Below are positions 2,365-45,800 of a DNA stretch of 64,000 nt, piece by piece. The position numbers and the translations under genes are program-made. Positions within the stretch are counted from its first letter, which is position 1; every line of letters begins with the position of its first letter. Origin of the DNA: Escherichia coli O127:H6 str. E2348/69 (lineage in GTDB: Bacteria > Pseudomonadota > Gammaproteobacteria > Enterobacterales > Enterobacteriaceae); assembly GCF_000026545.1 (NCBI RefSeq), contig NC_011601.1; one strand, given 5' to 3'. The notes under the pieces were generated by a model that worked only from the letters and a program-made list of their open reading frames with translations, did not search any database and was not told where the DNA came from.

Positions 2365-2529
2365 AAGAAATCCTTTCTTAGAGTATTATTGAGATCCGGT
2401 ATCATACCGACTGCAATAATGAAATAAGAGCAAACGAAGAAACTTTCAGAATTAGGCCCGGCGGCGCAGAAAATTTTGCTATTCGCCTCGCAAGAACGAA
2501 GAGCCGTCGATTGACACTAAGGGCGGAGT

Positions 2530-2671
2530 GACATAATTTCAGGAGTGAGGGTAGAGCGGGGTTTCCCCCGCCCTGGTAGTCTTAGTAAGCTGGCCAGCTA
2601 ATGACTAAGAGCACCACAATGATGAGTAGCTTCATCATGACCCTTTCCTTATTTAAGGCCCCTTCCTCGGG
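2530..2671 (+). ncRNA. Sib-type antisense antitoxin RNA, approximate bounds; 3' end may be cut by the IS
   Basis: Inferred only from position antisense to the Ibs toxin ORF; ends not defined from sequence. Confidence 0.3.
2582..2638 (-). CDS. Ibs-family type I toxin peptide (18 aa, MMKLLIIVVLLVISWPAY)
   Basis: Minus-strand ATGATG start, hydrophobic 18-codon ORF ending TAA at 2582-2584, in the yegL-mdtA spacer where K-12 carries ibs/sib; too short for the ORF track. Confidence 0.7.
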   Translation of the reverse strand: MMKLLIIVVLLVISWPAY

Positions 2672-4221
2672 CTGTCTCTTATACACAAATCCCCACCCGG
2701 GGATTTGTGATGTCTGTCAGTCTGCTTTAGGGGGACTCTTTCCATCCGGTAGTTTCCTTCCTCCCCGGCAGCGATTTTTTGAACTTTTTCCTCACCCGTT
2801 GATCTTCTCTTATATTTCATTTTCTTCGGGTCTGTTATGGTACTTTCTGATTGTTATTCATGGGCTAACGAGCAGTTTGGACATGCCCGTCTCGGTGATC
2901 CGCGTCGTACACGACGCCTTGTGTCACTGGCCTCTTCTCTCGCTCAGCATGCAGGTCTTTCTATTGTGAAATCATCCCAGTCCACTGCTCAGGTTGAAGG
3001 TGCGTACCGCCTGATACGTAACCCGTCTGTGTCCCCGCAAGCCATTGCCGAAGCCGGATTTACCGCCACTGTAAGGGCATGTGAGGCTCATCCGCTGCTC
3101 CTCGCGCTGGAAGACACCACCACCATTAACTTCAGTCACAGTACGGCATCTGATGACCTGGGGAATACCACCACTAACCCGAAGACGCGCGGGCTGCTGG
3201 CTCACTCTGTCCTGATGTACGCCCCCGACAGCGCCCTGCCAGTCGGTCTTATCGAACAGCAGCGCTGGAGTCGTGCCACGGACACCTACGGTGTTAAGCA
3301 CCAGCGAAAAGAACGTCCCTATGAAGAAAAAGAAAGTTACCGCTGGCAGCAGGCTTCGGAGCGCATGGCCGAACGGCTGGGGGAGATACAGAAACGGGTA
3401 ATCACTGTCTGTGACCGGGAAGCGGATATCTGGCATTACCTGCATTATAAAGTCAGCCACGGGCAGCGCTTCGTGGTGCGTGCAGCACAGAATCGCCGGC
3501 TGGAAGAAGCACCCGGCAAGCTCTTCGAACTGCCGGAAGTCCTGGCAACCGCGGGAAGCCACACGCTGAATGTGATGCAAAAAGGCGGGCGGGCAGCCCG
3601 CCAGGCCCGGATGTTCATCAGTTACAGCGAAGTCAGCATAAAAAATCCCGACAACAGCGGCCAGGCGCTCCCGCTCACGTATGTCTGTTGCCGGGAGCAG
3701 GCAGAGGACGGCGCCTGCTGGCATCTGCTGACGTCAGAAAAAGTGGCGAGTGCCGCCGATGCGCGACGTATCGTCAGCCATTACGAGCGACGCTGGCTGA
3801 TAGAGGAATACCACAAGGCGTGGAAAAGTGGTGGTACATGTGTGGAATCGCTGCGAATGCAGACCCGGGATAACCTCGAGCGCATGGTGGTTATCAAGGC
3901 GTTTATCGCGGTGCGGGTGCTGGGCCTGCGGCAGGGCGGTATCAGTGAAGAAACACAAAATGACAGCTGTGAGAAAATACTGACGCCGACAGAGTGGAAA
4001 CTGCTGTGGGTTAAGCTGGAAGGAAAACCGCTTCCGTCACAGATGCCGACACTGAAATGGGCCTGTCTGAAACTGGCGAAACTGGGGCGATGGCATGACA
4101 GCAAACGCACCGGTCGCCCCGGTTGGGTAGTCATGTGGGATGGCTGGTTCAGACTTCAGGATATGGTTGAGGGTTACCTGGTGATGAAGTCTCTTGATCA
4201 GGAGATCTGATCAAGAGACAG
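2672..4221 (+). mobile_element. IS50/Tn5-like insertion sequence (IS4 family), copy 1, 1550 bp
   Basis: Ends CTGTCTCTTATACACAAAT (left, Tn5 outside-end-like) and CTGTCTCTTGATCAGATCT (right, inverted; identical to Tn5 inside end); flanked by 8/9-bp direct repeat tcctcggg; carries the 457-aa transposase. Confidence 0.9.
2837..4210 (+). CDS. IS50/Tn5-like DDE transposase (457 aa)
   Basis: N-terminus ...GDPRRTRRLV...EGAYRLIRNPSVS and C-terminal ...YERRWLIEEYHKAWKSG...DSKRTG motifs recall Tn5 Tnp; identical to the copy at 44194-45567. Confidence 0.9.
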   Translation: MVLSDCYSWANEQFGHARLGDPRRTRRLVSLASSLAQHAGLSIVKSSQSTAQVEGAYRLIRNPSVSPQAIAEAGFTATVRACEAHPLLLALEDTTTINFSHSTASDDLGNTTTNPKTRGLLAHSVLMYAPDSALPVGLIEQQRWSRATDTYGVKHQRKERPYEEKESYRWQQASERMAERLGEIQKRVITVCDREADIWHYLHYKVSHGQRFVVRAAQNRRLEEAPGKLFELPEVLATAGSHTLNVMQKGGRAARQARMFISYSEVSIKNPDNSGQALPLTYVCCREQAEDGACWHLLTSEKVASAADARRIVSHYERRWLIEEYHKAWKSGGTCVESLRMQTRDNLERMVVIKAFIAVRVLGLRQGGISEETQNDSCEKILTPTEWKLLWVKLEGKPLPSQMPTLKWACLKLAKLGRWHDSKRTGRPGWVVMWDGWFRLQDMVEGYLVMKSLDQEI

Positions 4222-4403
4222 TCCTCGGGAGGGGTTTTCCCGTTTCAGCGTCCCGCTGAAATCATCGGCTTACCTCCTTTCGCCATGCACGTAGTCTATC
4301 GCTAACGCGTAGATAAAATAGTTTCATGTGTTATTACTGGATGCGTGCTCGCAAATGTGCCCGCCATTCAGACGATTCCCGATAGTGTTTCATAATTCCT
4401 CCA

Positions 4404-4421
4404 TTTTTCTCCCTTATTGGC
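4404..4421 (+). promoter_or_regulatory. BaeR box upstream of mdtA
   Basis: TTTTTCTCCCTTATTGGC matches the BaeR consensus TTTTTCTCCATDATTGGC, about 55 bp upstream of the mdtA start. Confidence 0.6.
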
Positions 4422-4474
4422 TGGCTACACTAGTATCATTCCGCGAAACGTTTCAGGAAGAGAAACTCTTAACG

Positions 4475-5722
4475 ATGAAAGGCAGTTATAAATCCCGTTG
4501 GGTAATCGTAATCGTGGTGGTTATCGCCGCCATCGCCGCATTCTGGTTCTGGCAAGGCCGCAATGACTCCCGGAGTGCAGCCCCAGGGGCGACGAAACAA
4601 GCGCAGCAATCGCCAGCGGGTGGTCGCCGTGGTATGCGTTCCGGCCCATTAGCCCCGGTTCAGGCGGCGACCGCCGTAGAACAGGCAGTTCCGCGTTACC
4701 TCACCGGGCTTGGCACCATTACCGCCGCTAATACCGTTACGGTGCGCAGCCGCGTGGACGGCCAACTGATAGCGTTACATTTCCAGGAAGGCCAGCAGGT
4801 CAAAGCAGGCGATTTACTGGCAGAAATTGACCCCAGCCAGTTCAAAGTTGCATTAGCACAAGCCCAGGGCCAACTGGCAAAAGATAAAGCCACGCTTGCC
4901 AACGCCCGCCGTGACCTGGCGCGTTATCAGCAACTGGCAAAAACCAATCTCGTATCTCGTCAGGAACTGGATGCCCAACAAGCGCTGGTCAGTGAAACCG
5001 AAGGCACCATTAAGGCTGATGAAGCAAGCGTCGCCAGCGCGCAGCTGCAACTCGACTGGAGCCGTATCACCGCACCAGTTGATGGTCGCGTTGGTCTCAA
5101 GCAGGTTGATGTTGGTAACCAAATCTCCAGTGGCGACACCACCGGGATTGTGGTGATCACCCAAACACATCCTATCGATCTGGTCTTTACTTTGCCGGAA
5201 AGCGATATCGCCACCGTTGTACAGGCACAAAAAGCCGGAAAACCGCTGGTGGTAGAAGCCTGGGATCGCACCAACTCGAAGAAGTTAAGTGAAGGCACGC
5301 TGTTAAGCCTTGATAACCAAATCGATGCCACTACCGGTACGATTAAAGTGAAAGCACGCTTTAATAATCAGGATGATGCGCTGTTTCCCAATCAGTTTGT
5401 TAACGCGCGCATGTTAGTCGACACAGAGCAAAACGCTGTGGTGATCCCAACAGCCGCCCTGCAAATGGGCAATGAAGGCCATTTTGTCTGGGTGCTGAAT
5501 AGCGAAAACAAGGTCAGCAAACATCTGGTGACGCCGGGCATTCAGGACAGTCAGAAAGTGGTGATCCGCGCAGGTATTTCTGCGGGCGACCGCGTAGTGA
5601 CAGACGGCATTGATCGCCTGACCGAAGGGGCGAAAGTGGAAGTAGTGGAAGCCCAGAGCGCCACCACTCCGGAAGAGAAAGCCACCAGCCGCGAATACGC
5701 GAAAAAAGGAGCACGCTCCTGA
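4475..5722 (+). CDS. mdtA: RND efflux membrane fusion protein MdtA
   Basis: 415-aa reading from [16 protein letters not shown] (ATG 4475, preceded by the BaeR box); the 464-aa track ORF is an upstream in-frame extension. Confidence 0.92.
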
Positions 5723-8844: not shown

Positions 8845-11800
8845 GTGAAGTTTTTTGCCCTCTTCATTTACCGCCCGGTGGCGACGATTTTACTGTCGGT
8901 CGCCATTACCCTGTGCGGCATACTGGGCTTCCGTATGCTGCCGGTCGCCCCACTGCCGCAGGTCGATTTTCCGGTGATTATGGTCAGCGCCTCGCTGCCC
9001 GGTGCGTCACCAGAAACAATGGCGTCTTCCGTTGCCACGCCGCTGGAACGTTCGCTTGGGCGCATTGCCGGGGTTAGTGAAATGACCTCCAGTAGTTCGC
9101 TCGGCAGCACGCGCATTATTTTGCAGTTTGATTTTGACCGCGATATCAACGGCGCAGCGCGTGATGTGCAGGCGGCGATCAACGCTGCACAAAGTTTGCT
9201 GCCCAGTGGGATGCCCAGCCGTCCGACCTATCGCAAAGCGAACCCGTCGGATGCGCCAATTATGATCCTCACGCTGACATCCGATACTTATTCGCAGGGT
9301 GAACTGTACGATTTCGCCTCGACGCAGTTGGCTCCGACGATTTCGCAAATCGACGGTGTCGGTGATGTCGATGTTGGCGGCAGCTCGCTGCCCGCCGTAC
9401 GCGTCGGGCTGAATCCTCAGGCGCTGTTTAATCAGGGCGTCTCGCTGGACGACGTACGCACCGCCATCAGCAATGCCAACGTGCGTAAACCGCAGGGGGC
9501 GCTGGAAGATGGTACTCACCGCTGGCAGATCCAGACTAACGATGAACTGAAAACCGCCGCTGAATATCAGCCGCTGATTATTCATTACAACAACGGCGGC
9601 GCGGTTCGTCTGGGCGATGTGGCGACGGTGACCGACTCTGTACAAGATGTACGTAACGCCGGGATGACCAACGCCAAACCGGCTATTTTGCTGATGATCC
9701 GCAAGCTGCCGGAAGCCAATATTATCCAGACGGTAGACAGCATCCGCGCCCGTCTGCCGGAATTACAATCCACCATTCCGGCGGCGATTGATCTGCAAAT
9801 TGCCCAGGATCGCTCCCCTACTATCCGCGCGTCGCTGGAAGAGGTTGAGCAGACGCTGATTATCTCGGTGGCGCTGGTGATTCTGGTGGTGTTTTTGTTC
9901 CTGCGTTCGGGTCGCGCCACCATTATTCCCGCCGTTGCGGTGCCGGTTTCGCTGATTGGTACGTTTGCGGCGATGTACCTGTGTGGTTTCAGTCTCAATA
10001 ATCTTTCGTTAATGGCGCTCACCATCGCCACTGGCTTTGTGGTGGATGACGCCATCGTGGTGCTGGAAAACATTGCCCGTCATCTGGAGGCGGGGATGAA
10101 ACCGTTACAGGCCGCGCTGCAAGGTACTCGCGAAGTCGGCTTTACGGTGCTGTCGATGAGTCTGTCACTGGTGGCGGTGTTCCTGCCGCTGCTGTTGATG
10201 GGCGGATTGCCGGGTCGCCTGTTACGCGAGTTTGCCGTGACGCTTTCTGTCGCCATTGGTATTTCGCTGCTGGTTTCCCTGACGTTAACGCCGATGATGT
10301 GCGGCTGGATGCTAAAAGCCAGCAAGCCGCGCGAGCAAAAGCGACTGCGTGGCTTTGGTCGCATGTTGGTAGCCCTGCAACAAGGCTATGGCAAGTCGCT
10401 GAAATGGGTGCTCAATCATACCCGTCTGGTGGGCGTGGTGCTGCTTGGCACCATTGCGCTGAATATCTGGCTGTATATCTCGATCCCGAAAACCTTCTTC
10501 CCGGAGCAGGACACCGGCGTACTGATGGGTGGGATACAGGCTGACCAGAGTATTTCGTTTCAGGCGATGCGCGGTAAGTTGCAGGACTTCATGAAAATTA
10601 TCCGTGACGATCCGGCGGTGGATAATGTCACCGGCTTTACCGGCGGTTCACGGGTGAACAGTGGAATGATGTTTATCACCCTTAAACCACGCGGCGAGCG
10701 GAGCGAAACGGCCCAACAGATTATCGATCGCTTGCGTAAAAAACTGGCTAAAGAACCGGGAGCGAATCTGTTCCTGATGGCGGTACAGGATATTCGCGTT
10801 GGCGGACGTCAGGCTAACGCCAGTTACCAGTACACGTTGTTATCCGACGACCTGGCGGCACTGCGCGAATGGGAGCCGAAAATCCGCAAAAAACTGGCGA
10901 CATTGCCAGAGCTGGCTGATGTTAACTCCGATCAGGAAGATAATGGCGCGGAGATGAACCTTATTTACGATCGCGACACCATGGCGCGACTGGGAATTGA
11001 CGTGCAAGCCGCCAACAGCCTGTTAAATAACGCCTTCGGTCAGCGGCAAATCTCGACCATTTACCAGCCGATGAACCAGTACAAAGTGGTGATGGAAGTT
11101 GATCCGCGCTATACCCAGGACATCAGTGCACTGGAAAAAATGTTCGTTATCAATAACGAAGGAAAAGCGATCCCGCTGTCATATTTCGCTAAATGGCAAC
11201 CGGCGAACGCTCCACTGTCGGTGAATCATCAGGGATTATCGGCGGCCTCGACCATTTCGTTCAACCTGCCGACCGGGAAATCGCTCTCGGACGCCAGTGC
11301 GGCGATCGATCGCGCAATGACCCAGCTTGGTGTGCCTTCGACGGTGCGCGGCAGTTTTGCCGGAACAGCGCAGGTGTTCCAGGAGACGATGAACTCACAG
11401 GTGATCCTGATTATCGCCGCCATCGCCACGGTATATATCGTACTGGGTATCCTTTACGAGAGTTATGTGCATCCACTGACGATTCTCTCCACCCTACCCT
11501 CGGCGGGCGTCGGAGCGCTGTTGGCGCTGGAGCTGTTCAATGCCCCGTTCAGCCTAATTGCGCTGATAGGGATCATGTTATTAATCGGCATCGTGAAGAA
11601 AAACGCCATTATGATGGTCGATTTTGCACTTGAAGCCCAACGGCACGGTAACCTGACGCCGCAGGAAGCTATTTTCCAGGCCTGTCTGCTGCGTTTTCGC
11701 CCGATTATGATGACTACCCTGGCGGCGCTGTTTGGTGCGCTGCCGCTGGTATTGTCGGGCGGTGACGGCTCGGAGTTGCGGCAACCATTGGGGATCACCA

Positions 11801-11922
11801 TTGTCGGCGGTCTGGTCATGAGCCAGCTTCTGACGCTGTATACCACGCCGGTGGTGTATCTCTTTTTCGACCGTCTGCGGCTGCGTTTTTCGCGTAAACC
11901 TAAACAAGCGGTAACCGAGTAA
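8845..11922 (+). CDS. mdtC: RND multidrug efflux transporter MdtC
   Basis: 1025-aa ORF, GTG start immediately after mdtB stop, RND paralog of MdtB. Confidence 0.95.
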
Positions 11923-13338
11923 ATGACAGATCTTCCCGACAGCACCCGCTGGCAATTGTGGATTGTGGCTTTCGGCTTCTTTATGCAGTCGCTGGACACC
12001 ACCATCGTTAACACCGCGCTTCCCTCAATGGCGCAAAGCCTCGGGGAAAGTCCGTTGCATATGCACATGGTCATTGTCTCTTATGTACTGACCGTGGCGG
12101 TGATGCTGCCCGCCAGCGGCTGGCTGGCGGACAAAGTCGGCGTGCGCAATATTTTCTTTACCGCCATCGTGCTGTTTACTCTCGGTTCACTGTTTTGCGC
12201 GCTTTCCGGCACGCTGAACGAACTGTTGCTGGCACGCGCGTTACAGGGCGTTGGCGGCGCGATGATGGTGCCGGTCGGCAGGTTGACGGTGATGAAAATC
12301 GTACCGCGCGAGCAATATATGGCGGCGATGACCTTTGTCACGCTGCCCGGTCAGGTCGGGCCGCTGCTTGGCCCGGCGCTCGGCGGTCTGCTGGTGGAGT
12401 ACGCATCGTGGCACTGGATCTTTTTGATCAACATTCCGGTGGGGATTATTGGGGCGATCGCCACACTGATGTTAATGCCGAACTACACCATGCAGACGCG
12501 GCGCTTTGATCTTTCCGGCTTTTTATTGCTGGCGGTTGGCATGGCGGTATTAACCCTGGCGCTGGACGGCAGTAAAGGTACAGGTTTATCGCCGCTGGCG
12601 ATTACTGGCCTGGTCGCAGTTGGTGTGGTGGCACTGGTGCTTTATCTGCTGCACGCCAGAAATAACCACCGCGCTCTTTTCAGTCTGAAACTGTTCCGCA
12701 CCCGTACCTTTTCGCTGGGTCTGGCGGGGAGTTTTGCCGGACGTATTGGCAGCGGTATGTTGCCCTTTATGACGCCGGTTTTCTTGCAAATTGGCCTTGG
12801 TTTCTCACCGTTCCATGCCGGACTGATGATGATCCCGATGGTGCTTGGCAGCATGGGAATGAAGCGAATTGTGGTACAGGTGGTGAATCGCTTTGGTTAT
12901 CGTCGGGTGCTGGTGGCAACCACGCTGGGTCTGTCGCTGGTCACCCTGTTGTTTATGACCACCGCGCTGCTGGGCTGGTACTACGTTTTGCCGTTCGTCC
13001 TGTTTTTACAAGGAATGGTCAACTCGACGCGTTTCTCCTCCATGAACACCCTGACGCTGAAAGATCTCCCGGACAATCTGGCGAGCAGCGGCAACAGTCT
13101 GCTGTCGATGATTATGCAATTGTCGATGAGTATCGGCGTCACCATCGCCGGGCTGTTGCTGGGACTTTTTGGTTCACAGCATGTCAGCGTTGACAGCGGC
13201 ACCACACAAACCGTCTTTATGTACACCTGGCTTAGCATGGCGTTTATCATCGCCCTTCCGGCGTTCATCTTTGCCAGAGTGCCGAACGATACGCATCAAA
13301 ATGTAGCTATTTCGCGGCGAAAAAGGAGCGCGCAATGA
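11923..13338 (+). CDS. mdtD: MFS transporter MdtD
   Basis: 471-aa MFS ORF contiguous with mdtC. Confidence 0.93.
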
Positions 13339-14738
13339 AGTTCTGGCGACCCGGTATTACCGGCAAACTGTTTCTGGCGATTTTCGCCACCTGCATTGTC
13401 TTGCTGATCAGTATGCACTGGGCGGTGCGTATCAGTTTTGAGCGTGGCTTTATTGATTACATCAAGCATGGTAATGAACAGCGATTACAACTGTTAAGTG
13501 ATGCGCTTGGCGAGCAGTATGCGCAGCATGGCAACTGGCGCTTCCTGCGCAACAATGATCGCTTTGTCTTTCAGATCCTGCGTTCATTTGAACACGATAA
13601 TTCGGAAGATAAACCCGGCCCGGGTATGCCACCGCACGGCTGGCGTACCCAGTTCTGGGTGGTTGATCAAAACAACAAAGTGCTGGTTGGTCCGCGAGCG
13701 CCGATTCCACCTGACGGTACACGGCGACCCATTCTGGTCAACGGTGCGGAAGTTGGCGCGGTGATCGCCTCCCCCGTTGAGCGGTTAACGCGCAATACTG
13801 ATATCAACTTCGATAAACAACAGCGGCAAACCAGCTGGTTGATTGTCGCTCTGGCAACGTTACTCGCGGCACTCGCTACTTTTCTGCTGGCGCGCGGTTT
13901 GCTGGCACCGGTAAAACGACTTGTCGATGGCACGCACAAACTGGCGGCGGGCGATTTCACTACCCGCGTAACGCCCACCAGTGAAGATGAACTGGGCAAA
14001 CTGGCGCAAGACTTCAACCAGCTCGCCAGCACGCTGGAGAAAAACCAGCAAATGCGGCGCGATTTTATGGCCGATATTTCTCACGAACTGCGTACGCCAT
14101 TAGCGGTGCTGCGCGGTGAACTGGAAGCCATTCAGGATGGCGTGCGCAAATTCACGCCGGAGACGGTGGCGTCTTTACAGGCGGAGGTCGGTACACTGAC
14201 CAAACTGGTTGACGATCTTCATCAGTTGTCGATGTCTGATGAAGGCGCTCTCGCCTATCAAAAAGCACCGATAGATTTGATCCCACTGCTGGAAGTGGCG
14301 GGAGGCGCATTTCGCGAACGATTCGCCAGCCGTGGCCTGAAATTGCAATTTTCCCTGCCAGACAGTATTACCGTATTTGGCGATCGCGATCGTTTAATGC
14401 AGTTGTTCAATAACTTACTGGAAAACAGCCTGCGCTACACTGACAGCGGCGGCAGCCTGAAAATCTCTGCCGAGCAGCACGACAAAACGGTGCGCCTGAC
14501 CTTTGCCGACAGTGCGCCGGGTGTCAGTGACGATCAGCTACAAAAATTGTTTGAACGTTTTTATCGCACCGAAGGTTCCCGCAACCGCGCCAGCGGTGGT
14601 TCCGGGCTGGGGCTGGCGATTTGCCTGAACATTGTTGAAGCACATAACGGCCGCATTATTGCCGCCCATTCGCCTTTTGGCGGGCTTAGCATTACAGTAG
14701 AGTTACCGCTGGAACGGGATTTACAGAGAGAAGTATGA
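13335..14738 (+). CDS. baeS: Envelope-stress sensor histidine kinase BaeS
   Basis: 467-aa ORF with H-box [11 protein letters not shown] and HATPase region; 4-nt overlap with mdtD. Confidence 0.95.
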
Positions 14739-17555: not shown

Positions 17556-17561
17556 CGTTTC

Positions 17562-17648
17562 GCTGAAAAACATAACCCATAAAATGCTAGCTGTACCAGG
17601 AACCACCTCCTTAGCCTGTGTAATCTCCCTTACACGGGCTTATTTTTT
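17562..17648 (+). ncRNA. cyaR: CyaR (RyeE) Hfq-dependent small RNA
   Basis: GCTGAAAAACATAACCCATAAAATGCTAGCTGTACCAGGAACCACCTCCTTAGCCTGTGTAATCTCCCTTACACGGGCTTATTTTTT matches the CyaR sequence from memory, ending in its own terminator hairpin and U-tract. Confidence 0.9.
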
Positions 17649-42164: not shown

Positions 42165-42300
42165 TCCTGCCATAACGTGAAGAAGCAATGACCTGGTGGT
42201 CCGTGACTTCCCTACGCTGGCATTATCCAGATCAGGTGATACGGGTATTTCTCAGCCTTCACGCAGAAGGGCACCCCGAGTCGTTTGGTTGCGATGATAA
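42165..42300 (-). promoter_or_regulatory. TPP riboswitch (thi-box) in thiM leader
   Basis: Minus strand reads GGGGTGCCC...CTGAGAAATACCCGTATCACCTGATCTGGATAATGCCAGCGTAGGGAAGTCACGGACCACCAGGTCATTGCTTCTTCACG, the conserved thiM aptamer and expression platform. Confidence 0.88.
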
Positions 42301-44160: not shown

Positions 44161-44182
44161 AAAAAAGCCCCCTCGGAGAGAG

Positions 44183-45732
44183 CTGTCTCTTGATCAGATC
44201 TCCTGATCAAGAGACTTCATCACCAGGTAACCCTCAACCATATCCTGAAGTCTGAACCAGCCATCCCACATGACTACCCAACCGGGGCGACCGGTGCGTT
44301 TGCTGTCATGCCATCGCCCCAGTTTCGCCAGTTTCAGACAGGCCCATTTCAGTGTCGGCATCTGTGACGGAAGCGGTTTTCCTTCCAGCTTAACCCACAG
44401 CAGTTTCCACTCTGTCGGCGTCAGTATTTTCTCACAGCTGTCATTTTGTGTTTCTTCACTGATACCGCCCTGCCGCAGGCCCAGCACCCGCACCGCGATA
44501 AACGCCTTGATAACCACCATGCGCTCGAGGTTATCCCGGGTCTGCATTCGCAGCGATTCCACACATGTACCACCACTTTTCCACGCCTTGTGGTATTCCT
44601 CTATCAGCCAGCGTCGCTCGTAATGGCTGACGATACGTCGCGCATCGGCGGCACTCGCCACTTTTTCTGACGTCAGCAGATGCCAGCAGGCGCCGTCCTC
44701 TGCCTGCTCCCGGCAACAGACATACGTGAGCGGGAGCGCCTGGCCGCTGTTGTCGGGATTTTTTATGCTGACTTCGCTGTAACTGATGAACATCCGGGCC
44801 TGGCGGGCTGCCCGCCCGCCTTTTTGCATCACATTCAGCGTGTGGCTTCCCGCGGTTGCCAGGACTTCCGGCAGTTCGAAGAGCTTGCCGGGTGCTTCTT
44901 CCAGCCGGCGATTCTGTGCTGCACGCACCACGAAGCGCTGCCCGTGGCTGACTTTATAATGCAGGTAATGCCAGATATCCGCTTCCCGGTCACAGACAGT
45001 GATTACCCGTTTCTGTATCTCCCCCAGCCGTTCGGCCATGCGCTCCGAAGCCTGCTGCCAGCGGTAACTTTCTTTTTCTTCATAGGGACGTTCTTTTCGC
45101 TGGTGCTTAACACCGTAGGTGTCCGTGGCACGACTCCAGCGCTGCTGTTCGATAAGACCGACTGGCAGGGCGCTGTCGGGGGCGTACATCAGGACAGAGT
45201 GAGCCAGCAGCCCGCGCGTCTTCGGGTTAGTGGTGGTATTCCCCAGGTCATCAGATGCCGTACTGTGACTGAAGTTAATGGTGGTGGTGTCTTCCAGCGC
45301 GAGGAGCAGCGGATGAGCCTCACATGCCCTTACAGTGGCGGTAAATCCGGCTTCGGCAATGGCTTGCGGGGACACAGACGGGTTACGTATCAGGCGGTAC
45401 GCACCTTCAACCTGAGCAGTGGACTGGGATGATTTCACAATAGAAAGACCTGCATGCTGAGCGAGAGAAGAGGCCAGTGACACAAGGCGTCGTGTACGAC
45501 GCGGATCACCGAGACGGGCATGTCCAAACTGCTCGTTAGCCCATGAATAACAATCAGAAAGTACCATAACAGACCCGAAGAAAATGAAATATAAGAGAAG
45601 ATCAACGGGTGAGGAAAAAGTTCAAAAAATCGCTGCCGGGGAGGAAGGAAACTACCGGATGGAAAGAGTCCCCCTAAAGCAGACTGACAGACATCACAAA
45701 TCCCCGGGTGGGGATTTGTGTATAAGAGACAG
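44183..45732 (-). mobile_element. IS50/Tn5-like insertion sequence (IS4 family), copy 2, 1550 bp, inverted relative to copy 1
   Basis: Same terminal sequences as copy 1; perfect 9-bp target-site duplication CGGAGAGAG at 44174-44182 and 45733-45741. Confidence 0.92.
44194..45567 (-). CDS. IS50/Tn5-like DDE transposase (457 aa)
   Basis: Protein identical to the ORF at 2837-4210. Confidence 0.9.
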   Translation of the reverse strand: MVLSDCYSWANEQFGHARLGDPRRTRRLVSLASSLAQHAGLSIVKSSQSTAQVEGAYRLIRNPSVSPQAIAEAGFTATVRACEAHPLLLALEDTTTINFSHSTASDDLGNTTTNPKTRGLLAHSVLMYAPDSALPVGLIEQQRWSRATDTYGVKHQRKERPYEEKESYRWQQASERMAERLGEIQKRVITVCDREADIWHYLHYKVSHGQRFVVRAAQNRRLEEAPGKLFELPEVLATAGSHTLNVMQKGGRAARQARMFISYSEVSIKNPDNSGQALPLTYVCCREQAEDGACWHLLTSEKVASAADARRIVSHYERRWLIEEYHKAWKSGGTCVESLRMQTRDNLERMVVIKAFIAVRVLGLRQGGISEETQNDSCEKILTPTEWKLLWVKLEGKPLPSQMPTLKWACLKLAKLGRWHDSKRTGRPGWVVMWDGWFRLQDMVEGYLVMKSLDQEI

Positions 45733-45800
45733 CGGAGAGAGGGGGGAATGCAGACACCTTAATATTTTTATTATTAGCCACTTGCTCGTCTTGCTTGTTA

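Follow-up and report, generated by a model that had tools for sequence, protein, structure and literature searches.

The chromosome of Escherichia coli O127:H6 str. E2348/69, an enteropathogenic E. coli (EPEC) reference strain, carries a copy of the insertion sequence (IS) ISEc13 between yegL and the efflux operon mdtABCD-baeSR, which itself lies at its usual chromosomal location beside yegL. We analysed this copy within a window of 64,000 nucleotides (NCBI RefSeq assembly GCF_000026545.1, contig NC_011601.1), for which RefSeq gives the gene order yegL, Ibs toxin, "IS4-like element ISEc13 family transposase" and mdtA, and of which bases 2400-4500 are 100% identical to NZ_CP059840.2. The six genes of the operon are intact and lie on the + strand (mdtA 415, mdtB 1040, mdtC 1025, mdtD 471, baeS 467 and baeR 240 aa). 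An original prediction on this DNA had described an IS copy upstream of mdtA whose transposase reads toward the operon on the mdtA strand, and this geometry was borne out: the IS ends at 4221, which is 254 bp from the mdtA ATG at 4475 and 183 bp from the BaeR box. It had gone on to suggest consequences for the expression of the pump, which are weighed below, and had overlooked that the IS splits the terminator of a Sib antitoxin RNA gene together with the leader of the ibs toxin gene on the opposite strand.

The DNA to the left of the IS is recognizable as a Sib/ibs toxin-antitoxin unit. The Rfam model SIB_RNA (RF00113; gathering score 56) hits positions 2511-2653 with 138 bits, and the antisense strand holds a short hydrophobic Ibs open reading frame (ORF) of 18 aa, as in known Sib/Ibs loci (QUAD repeats). 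The Sib promoter is the strongest promoter-like site on the + strand 5' of mdtA and is colinear with the promoter of K-12 sibA. In contrast to the two tandem units of K-12, E2348/69 has a single chimeric unit with a sibA promoter and a sibB body; comparison of window positions 2365-2671 with K-12 2153129-2153781 reveals a 335-bp deletion via recombination between the repeats. The unit also differs from known Sib/Ibs loci in being interrupted by the IS, so that the Sib terminator hairpin is split at 2671/2672 and the ibs leader is parted from its putative promoter.

The insertion lies at the exact tip of the Sib terminator hairpin, with the 8-bp duplication TCCTCGGG centred on the loop. When the IS is excised along with one TCCTCGGG copy, what remains is colinear with K-12, and the restored site reads GGCCCCTTCCTCGGGAGGGG. 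In K-12 the 3' end of SibB RNA (...GGCCCCTTCCTCGGGAGGGGCTTTCC) forms a hairpin with a 9-bp stem and a 4-nt loop at -22.5 kcal/mol, and the reconstructed EPEC terminator hairpin folds at -16.4 kcal/mol. Given the 8-bp duplication, the colinearity with K-12 after removal and the RefSeq arrangement, the insertion is a real event and not a chance resemblance. It has left the Sib gene without its terminator. A hybrid hairpin across the left junction (2657-2673) was considered as a working replacement and rejected, with 5 pairs by scan, of which RNAfold pairs 3, at about -3 kcal/mol.

The same event has severed the ibs ORF from the DNA that preceded it. The left end of the IS lies just 33 bp from the ibs ATG, too close to accommodate a promoter. 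The ibsC mRNA starts 18 nt past the SibC 3' end (PMC2943612) and, on that mapping, the loop of the Sib terminator also falls within the ibs leader. By homology, ibs transcription probably starts at about 4258 on the - strand, within the 4243-4261 hairpin, and the putative ibs promoter would now point into the IS, antisense to the transposase gene. The minus strand of that gene holds five overlapping terminator-like hairpins with T-runs between 3340 and 3757 (starting at 3757, 3665, 3602 (twice) and 3352; 6 such sites in the region versus 2.2 expected). As predicted structures, these would halt transcripts that come in through the right end, such as those of the ibs promoter.

The inserted element was delimited by a repeat search, which gave two 100%-identical inverted copies (2671-4226 and 44178-45733), and by junction reading, which refined them to 2672-4221 and 44183-45732 (Table 1). 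Its transposase matches the NCBIfam IS4 model NF033590 with E = 2.6e-154 (514 bits, cut-off 160), aligns over its full length to the Tn5 transposase in PDB (E = 6e-84) and contains in a single ORF the Y-(2)-R-(3)-E-(6)-K motif of IS4-family DDE transposases, visible as hYerRwliEeyhkawK. Both terminal inverted repeats begin with 5'-CT, match each other at 13 of 19 positions and are close to the Tn5 ends. The right one is identical at 19/19 positions to what we take to be the Tn5 inside end. The same 19-mer terminates a Tn5 PnptII primer (PMC5458577), and the outside-end sequence with which the left repeat was compared is from PMC3347997. As in IS50/Tn5, the transposase gene runs from the outside end toward the inside end, and its stop falls within the terminal repeat. 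The right end, which resembles the Tn5 inside end, has with its hairpin three GATC (Dam) sites at 4196, 4204 and 4209. Such sites also occur in the Tn5 inside end, which suggests that the use of this end may be under Dam-dependent control. Judged by sequence, ISEc13 is a close cousin of IS50.

Table 1. Features at and around ISEc13 in the E2348/69 window (64,000 nucleotides).
Feature	Position	Strand	Basis or remark
Sib promoter, TTGACA-15-CATAAT with TG extension or TTGACA-17-TAATTT	2511..2539	+	11/12, relaxed scan
Sib antitoxin RNA gene, first ~125 nt, cut by the IS within the terminator	2547..2671	+	alignment to K-12 sibB
ibs toxin ORF MMKLLIIVVLLVISWPAY, 18 aa, hydrophobic	2582..2638	-	RefSeq annotation; translation
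Left half of Sib terminator hairpin (GGCCCCT) and left duplication copy TCCTCGGG at 2664-2671	2657..2671	+	junction reading, K-12 comparison
ISEc13 copy 1 (IS4 family, Tn5/IS50-like), 1,550 bp	2672..4221	+	repeat search and junction reading
Left terminal inverted repeat CTGTCTCTTATACACAAAT	2672..2690	+	17/19 identical to Tn5 outside end
IS left-end hairpin, 11-bp stem CACAAATCCCC/GGGGATTTGTG	2684..2709	+	RNAfold, -20.4 kcal/mol with tail
AGGGGG, IS positions 58-63	2729..2734	+	predicted pairing with retained C-rich target arm
Transposase gene, 457 aa	2837..4210	+	single ORF; stop 11 bp before IS end
Perfect 13-bp-stem hairpin over transposase end and right inverted repeat	4189..4219	+	no T-run after; three GATC
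Right terminal inverted repeat, reverse complement CTGTCTCTTGATCAGATCT	4203..4221	+	start coincides with 4203 of the original prediction
Right duplication copy TCCTCGGG	4222..4229	+	junction reading
Orphan right half of Sib terminator (AGGGG) and T-run	4230..4240	+	K-12 comparison
Native 8-bp hairpin TTTCAGCG-TCC-CGCTGAAA	4243..4261	+	also after sibA and sibB in K-12
Putative ibs promoter region	4262..4300	-	by homology; now parted from ibs ORF by the IS
BaeR box TTTTTCTCCCTTATTGGC	4404..4421	+	1 mismatch to consensus
mdtA, first gene of mdtABCD-baeSR	4475..5722	+	NCBIfam NF008589, E = 1.6e-217; RefSeq annotation
ISEc13 copy 2, inverted, identical; 9-bp duplication CGGAGAGAG	44183..45732	-	repeat search, junctions

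ISEc13 is unusually abundant in this strain. With 30 chromosomal and 2 plasmid places, E2348/69 tops the 5,426 complete E. coli genomes, for which the median is 1. Full copies occur in ~870 E. coli genomes; the present analysis covered about 25 sites. Many other E. coli genomes have just one old copy, located in the ybaY-ybaZ gap, and a second look-up with a 98% variant of the transposase returned only this widely shared copy. A literature search found no paper on the biology of ISEc13, the ISfinder entry being outside the search.

To describe where the element lands we reconstructed 18 distinct target sites, drawn from the window copies, ten places of CP148541.1 (exact-protein look-up), one clean metagenome site, six places from other records, and the sibE and sibA sites. 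The duplication measures 8 bp at 14 of the 18 sites and 9 bp at the remaining 4, about one helical turn and close to the ~9 bp of IS50/Tn5. At 17 of the 18 sites, C makes up 3 or more of the 5 bases left of the duplication, and G makes up 3 or more of the 5 right of it. In 11 of the first 14, the two arms are also complementary over ≥4 contiguous bases directly next to the duplication (window background 2.7e-4 per position). Copy 2 of the window, for example, sits in the hairpin tip CCCCCT[CTCTCTCCG]AGGGGG, followed by T8. About one third of the sites have a T-run and resemble intrinsic terminators, and one falls in the coding sequence of dgoD. A metagenome scan returned 43 loci, mostly truncated or decayed relics or contig ends, with the one clean new two-sided site used here, and the C-run was still present in the metagenome left flanks; a genome-contig scan with the 38-nt left end of the IS gave no matches. 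ISEc13 thus prefers a C-rich arm, 8-9 bp and a complementary G-rich arm, that is, the tips of G/C-rich hairpins, many of them intrinsic terminators.

The terminators of Sib genes are hit again and again by this preference. Z1322HEC0010 has an IS at the same base and in the same orientation as E2348/69, but this IS is only 98.1% identical and the locus retains both Sib units. In A25 and a pig isolate the same sibB-type hairpin position is occupied in the opposite orientation. Five genomes (2 inspected) have an IS in the sibA terminator of the yegL-mdtA gap that points away from mdtA, and the sibE terminator at hldE/yqiK is occupied in 5 genomes. These represent at least five independent insertions into Sib terminators, 3 co-directional with Sib and 2 opposite, a count on which a preferred orientation of the IS with respect to Sib was rejected. 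In total, an IS in any Sib terminator accounts for 16 genome hits among the 5,426 (9 + 7; some genomes, for instance A25 and FDAARGOS_144, have one of each kind and are counted twice). Sib terminators are therefore recurrent hot spots for ISEc13, hit in both orientations. The position of the IS near mdtA follows from the target preference of the element and its orientation from chance; with hits that recur in both directions, there is no need to invoke selection acting on the pump for either.

Efflux operons preceded by an IS, IS4-family elements with symmetric targets and palindrome-entering IS are all familiar. Tn5 itself has only a weak target consensus, which lies within its 9-bp duplication, whereas ISEc13 strongly requires complementary C-rich and G-rich arms outside its 8- or 9-bp duplication. 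Among other IS4-family elements, IS231 targets GGG(N)5CCC, IS186 G≥4(N)3-6C≥4 and IS10 NGCTNAGCN; ISEc13 shares with them a two-fold symmetric target, as expected of a transposase dimer attacking both strands, but differs in polarity (C-run, then G-run) and in having the runs outside the duplication. IS1397 enters the loop of palindromic units. A review of the family notes arm specificity for the IS4 and IS4Sa subgroups and reports none such for the IS50 subgroup (PMC2266710). Insertion into repetitive extragenic palindrome (REP) sequences is known for IS1397/ISKpn1 (IS3 family), IS621 (IS110 family) and ISRm22 (IS4Sa subgroup) (PMC1525189). The insertion of ISEc13 is likewise directed to palindromic hairpins, extragenic in those elements, but its transposase belongs to a different family or subgroup and its targets are assorted C-/G-armed hairpins, not REP or bacterial interspersed mosaic element (BIME) repeats. 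Our literature search, to which ISfinder was external, found no description of a comparable preference in a Tn5-like element.

The left end of the element may bear on how it coexists with the terminators that it enters. RNAfold predicts that the AGGGGG at IS positions 58-63 pairs with the C-rich arm of the target in all 13 reconstructed left junctions, at -33 to -46 kcal/mol; the predicted structure encloses the 11-bp hairpin, then CUCUUUCC. A role of this structure as a replacement terminator or insulator is speculative. Extending this, we raise as a tentative and rather doubtful idea that ISEc13 specifically targets G/C-rich hairpin tips and would re-form, with its first 64 nt, a block resembling a terminator, limiting read-through into itself and its neighbours. 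Of the two halves of this idea, the target preference is essentially shown and the rebuilt terminator is a fold prediction.

We consider it likely that target choice placed the IS where it is, that the functional damage falls on the Sib/ibs unit, and that the pump is still essentially under BaeR control. A burst of ISEc13 in the lineage, where copy 1 is one of about 30 copies, would account for the insertion at the tip of the Sib terminator between yegL and mdtA, and the location near mdtA would be a by-product of target choice and not of selection on the pump. The direct functional casualty would be the Sib/ibs unit, with the toxin cut from its promoter and the Sib antitoxin either extended into the left end of the IS or re-terminated within it. 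For mdtABCD-baeSR we would expect at most low-level read-through.

The promoter-proximal DNA of the operon agrees with this. The BaeR box is compared here with the published consensus TTTTTCTCCATDATTGGC (PMC3915751); TTTTTCTCCCTTATTGGC is the sole match in the 64 kb, where 0.02 would be expected by chance, and its presence upstream of mdtA, together with the six intact genes, identifies a BaeR-regulated operon. The 254 bp 5' of mdtA, the box included, are colinear with K-12. No CpxR-box-like site (GTAAA-N5-GTAAA, at most 2 mismatches) was found on either side of the IS, in 2365-2671 or in 4222-4475, and the search as a whole gave 60 matches versus 52 expected, which is the chance level. A promoter-like site at 4367-4396 was rejected as an effect of the IS; it is native, occurs in K-12 too and lies upstream of the BaeR box. 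The claim that the insertion had displaced upstream regulatory input of mdtA is therefore not supported: the DNA that was moved away is a separate Sib/ibs unit with its own promoter and terminator, and the sequence retained at mdtA is that of K-12.

The main alternative is that the IS causes a BaeR-independent change in mdtABCD-baeSR expression, through read-through from the transposase promoter or the unterminated Sib promoter, or from an outward promoter in its right end. We regard this as unlikely. The outward promoter put forward in the original prediction did not survive the scans: no sigma-70-like site was found at ≥9/12, or at a relaxed ≥8/12, in 3950-4221 (the last 270 nt of the IS) or spanning the junction, a result of consensus scanning and not proof of absence. 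Here ISEc13 departs from its relative, since an equivalent of the IS50L PnptII outward promoter was not found in the consensus scan. Candidates for a transposase promoter reach 8/12 at best. Sib promoter, transposase gene and mdtA do share the + strand, but transcripts from Sib would meet a predicted left-end structure of -40 kcal/mol and then have 1.55 kb to cross, and the putative ibs promoter would fire convergently into the right end of the IS. ISEc13 occurs in the opposite orientation in the same gap elsewhere, with no sign of a selected orientation, and the arrangement of the window, with the IS toward mdtA, is found in only 4 of the 5,426 genomes.

Several points nevertheless weigh against our reading. 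The near-consensus Sib promoter has lost its terminator, a native hairpin of -16 to -22 kcal/mol that is now split, and points toward the transposase gene and mdtA, so that a read-through transcript is physically possible. The terminator scan found no intrinsic-terminator-like site on the + strand in 4210-4475; the right-end hairpins are strong but lack a U-run. Tn5 offers a precedent in PnptII, a promoter within IS50 that reads out across the inside end, and consensus promoter scans miss non-canonical promoters. For the toxin, the position of the ibs promoter was taken from ibsC and ibsD, which are other copies, and is thus presumptive; the region 4262-4300 contains no consensus promoter at ≥7/12. 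The target rule is drawn from 18 sites, 12 of which were reconstructed from the single genome CP148541.1, and the literature search returned no paper naming both E2348/69 and mdtA.

A known parallel for an effect on the pump is the activation of efflux operons by an IS, for example of acrEF by IS1, IS2 or IS10 upstream of it. In those cases an outward or hybrid promoter was supplied or a repressor disrupted, under drug selection. The present arrangement resembles them in having a resistance-nodulation-division (RND) efflux operon with a same-strand IS a few hundred bp upstream. It differs in that no promoter-like element faces mdtA, the native activator site is intact and the site is explained by target choice. 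The IS next to mdtA is a real but ordinary juxtaposition of an IS and a gene.

Less likely still is that the insertion was kept for its effect on Sib/ibs, with the toxin disarmed and selection or tolerance acting on that unit and not on mdtA. The IS does lie 33 bp from the ibs start, inside the leader suggested by the ibsC mapping, and loss of the antitoxin terminator alone would be expected to be harmful, whereas this insertion affects toxin and antitoxin together. That sibA, sibB and sibE were hit at matching positions in at least five independent events could be read in the same way; this recurrence, however, is fully explained by the target preference, with non-Sib hairpins hit likewise, and the 16 genome hits are few among 5,426. 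Expression and toxicity of ibs at this locus are themselves putative.

A Tn5-like composite transposon made up of the two inverted copies, which brought or can move the ~40-kb segment with mdtABCD-baeSR that they bracket, is very improbable. As in Tn5, it is the inside-end-like ends that face each other and the outside-end-like ends that form the outer borders, but each copy has its own intact duplication (8-bp TCCTCGGG and 9-bp CGGAGAGAG) in place of a single outer one, the flanks of copy 1 are colinear with K-12 and the operon is in its usual chromosomal place. The separate duplications mean that the two copies arrived separately. A past inversion between them was likewise rejected, as both retain matching duplications, although the copies could mediate an inversion of the bracketed segment. 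Such exchanges seem to have occurred elsewhere. Some ISEc13 copies lack a duplication and have flanks exchanged with another copy, each half still fitting the target rule; in CP148541.1 the left flank of one copy (L052) matches the right flank of another (L053) and vice versa, which points to inversion or rearrangement between copies. Further copies without a duplication are L063, on the pMAR2 plasmid, and L067.

Other copies in the E2348/69 lineage split dgoD (galactonate dehydratase; L064, E2348/69 11039-13639) or occupy the lamB-malM gap in the maltose operon (L068, EPEC1 379409-382009), with possible phenotypic consequences unrelated to mdtA. Elsewhere in the window, Rfam matches were obtained for the CyaR sRNA (17560-17645), a TPP riboswitch (42192-42288, - strand) and the OrzO-P antitoxin RNA (63224-63297), the last marking a second type I toxin-antitoxin locus.

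E2348/69 is a carrier of a disrupted Sib/ibs toxin-antitoxin unit. For the pump the consequence is probably small; the sequence provides no reason to expect BaeR-independent expression in this widely used EPEC reference strain. A25 and CP090611.1, which have the IS at the same site in reverse, and FDAARGOS_144, which has it in the sibA terminator, are natural comparators for this question. If the left end does rebuild a terminator, ISEc13 could occupy terminators while sparing itself, and neighbours such as mdtA, from read-through. More generally, the choice of hairpin tips predicts where ISEc13 lands and which transcription units it would fuse or insulate, and a Tn5-like transposase with strong target selectivity could inform the engineering of Tn5 target choice.

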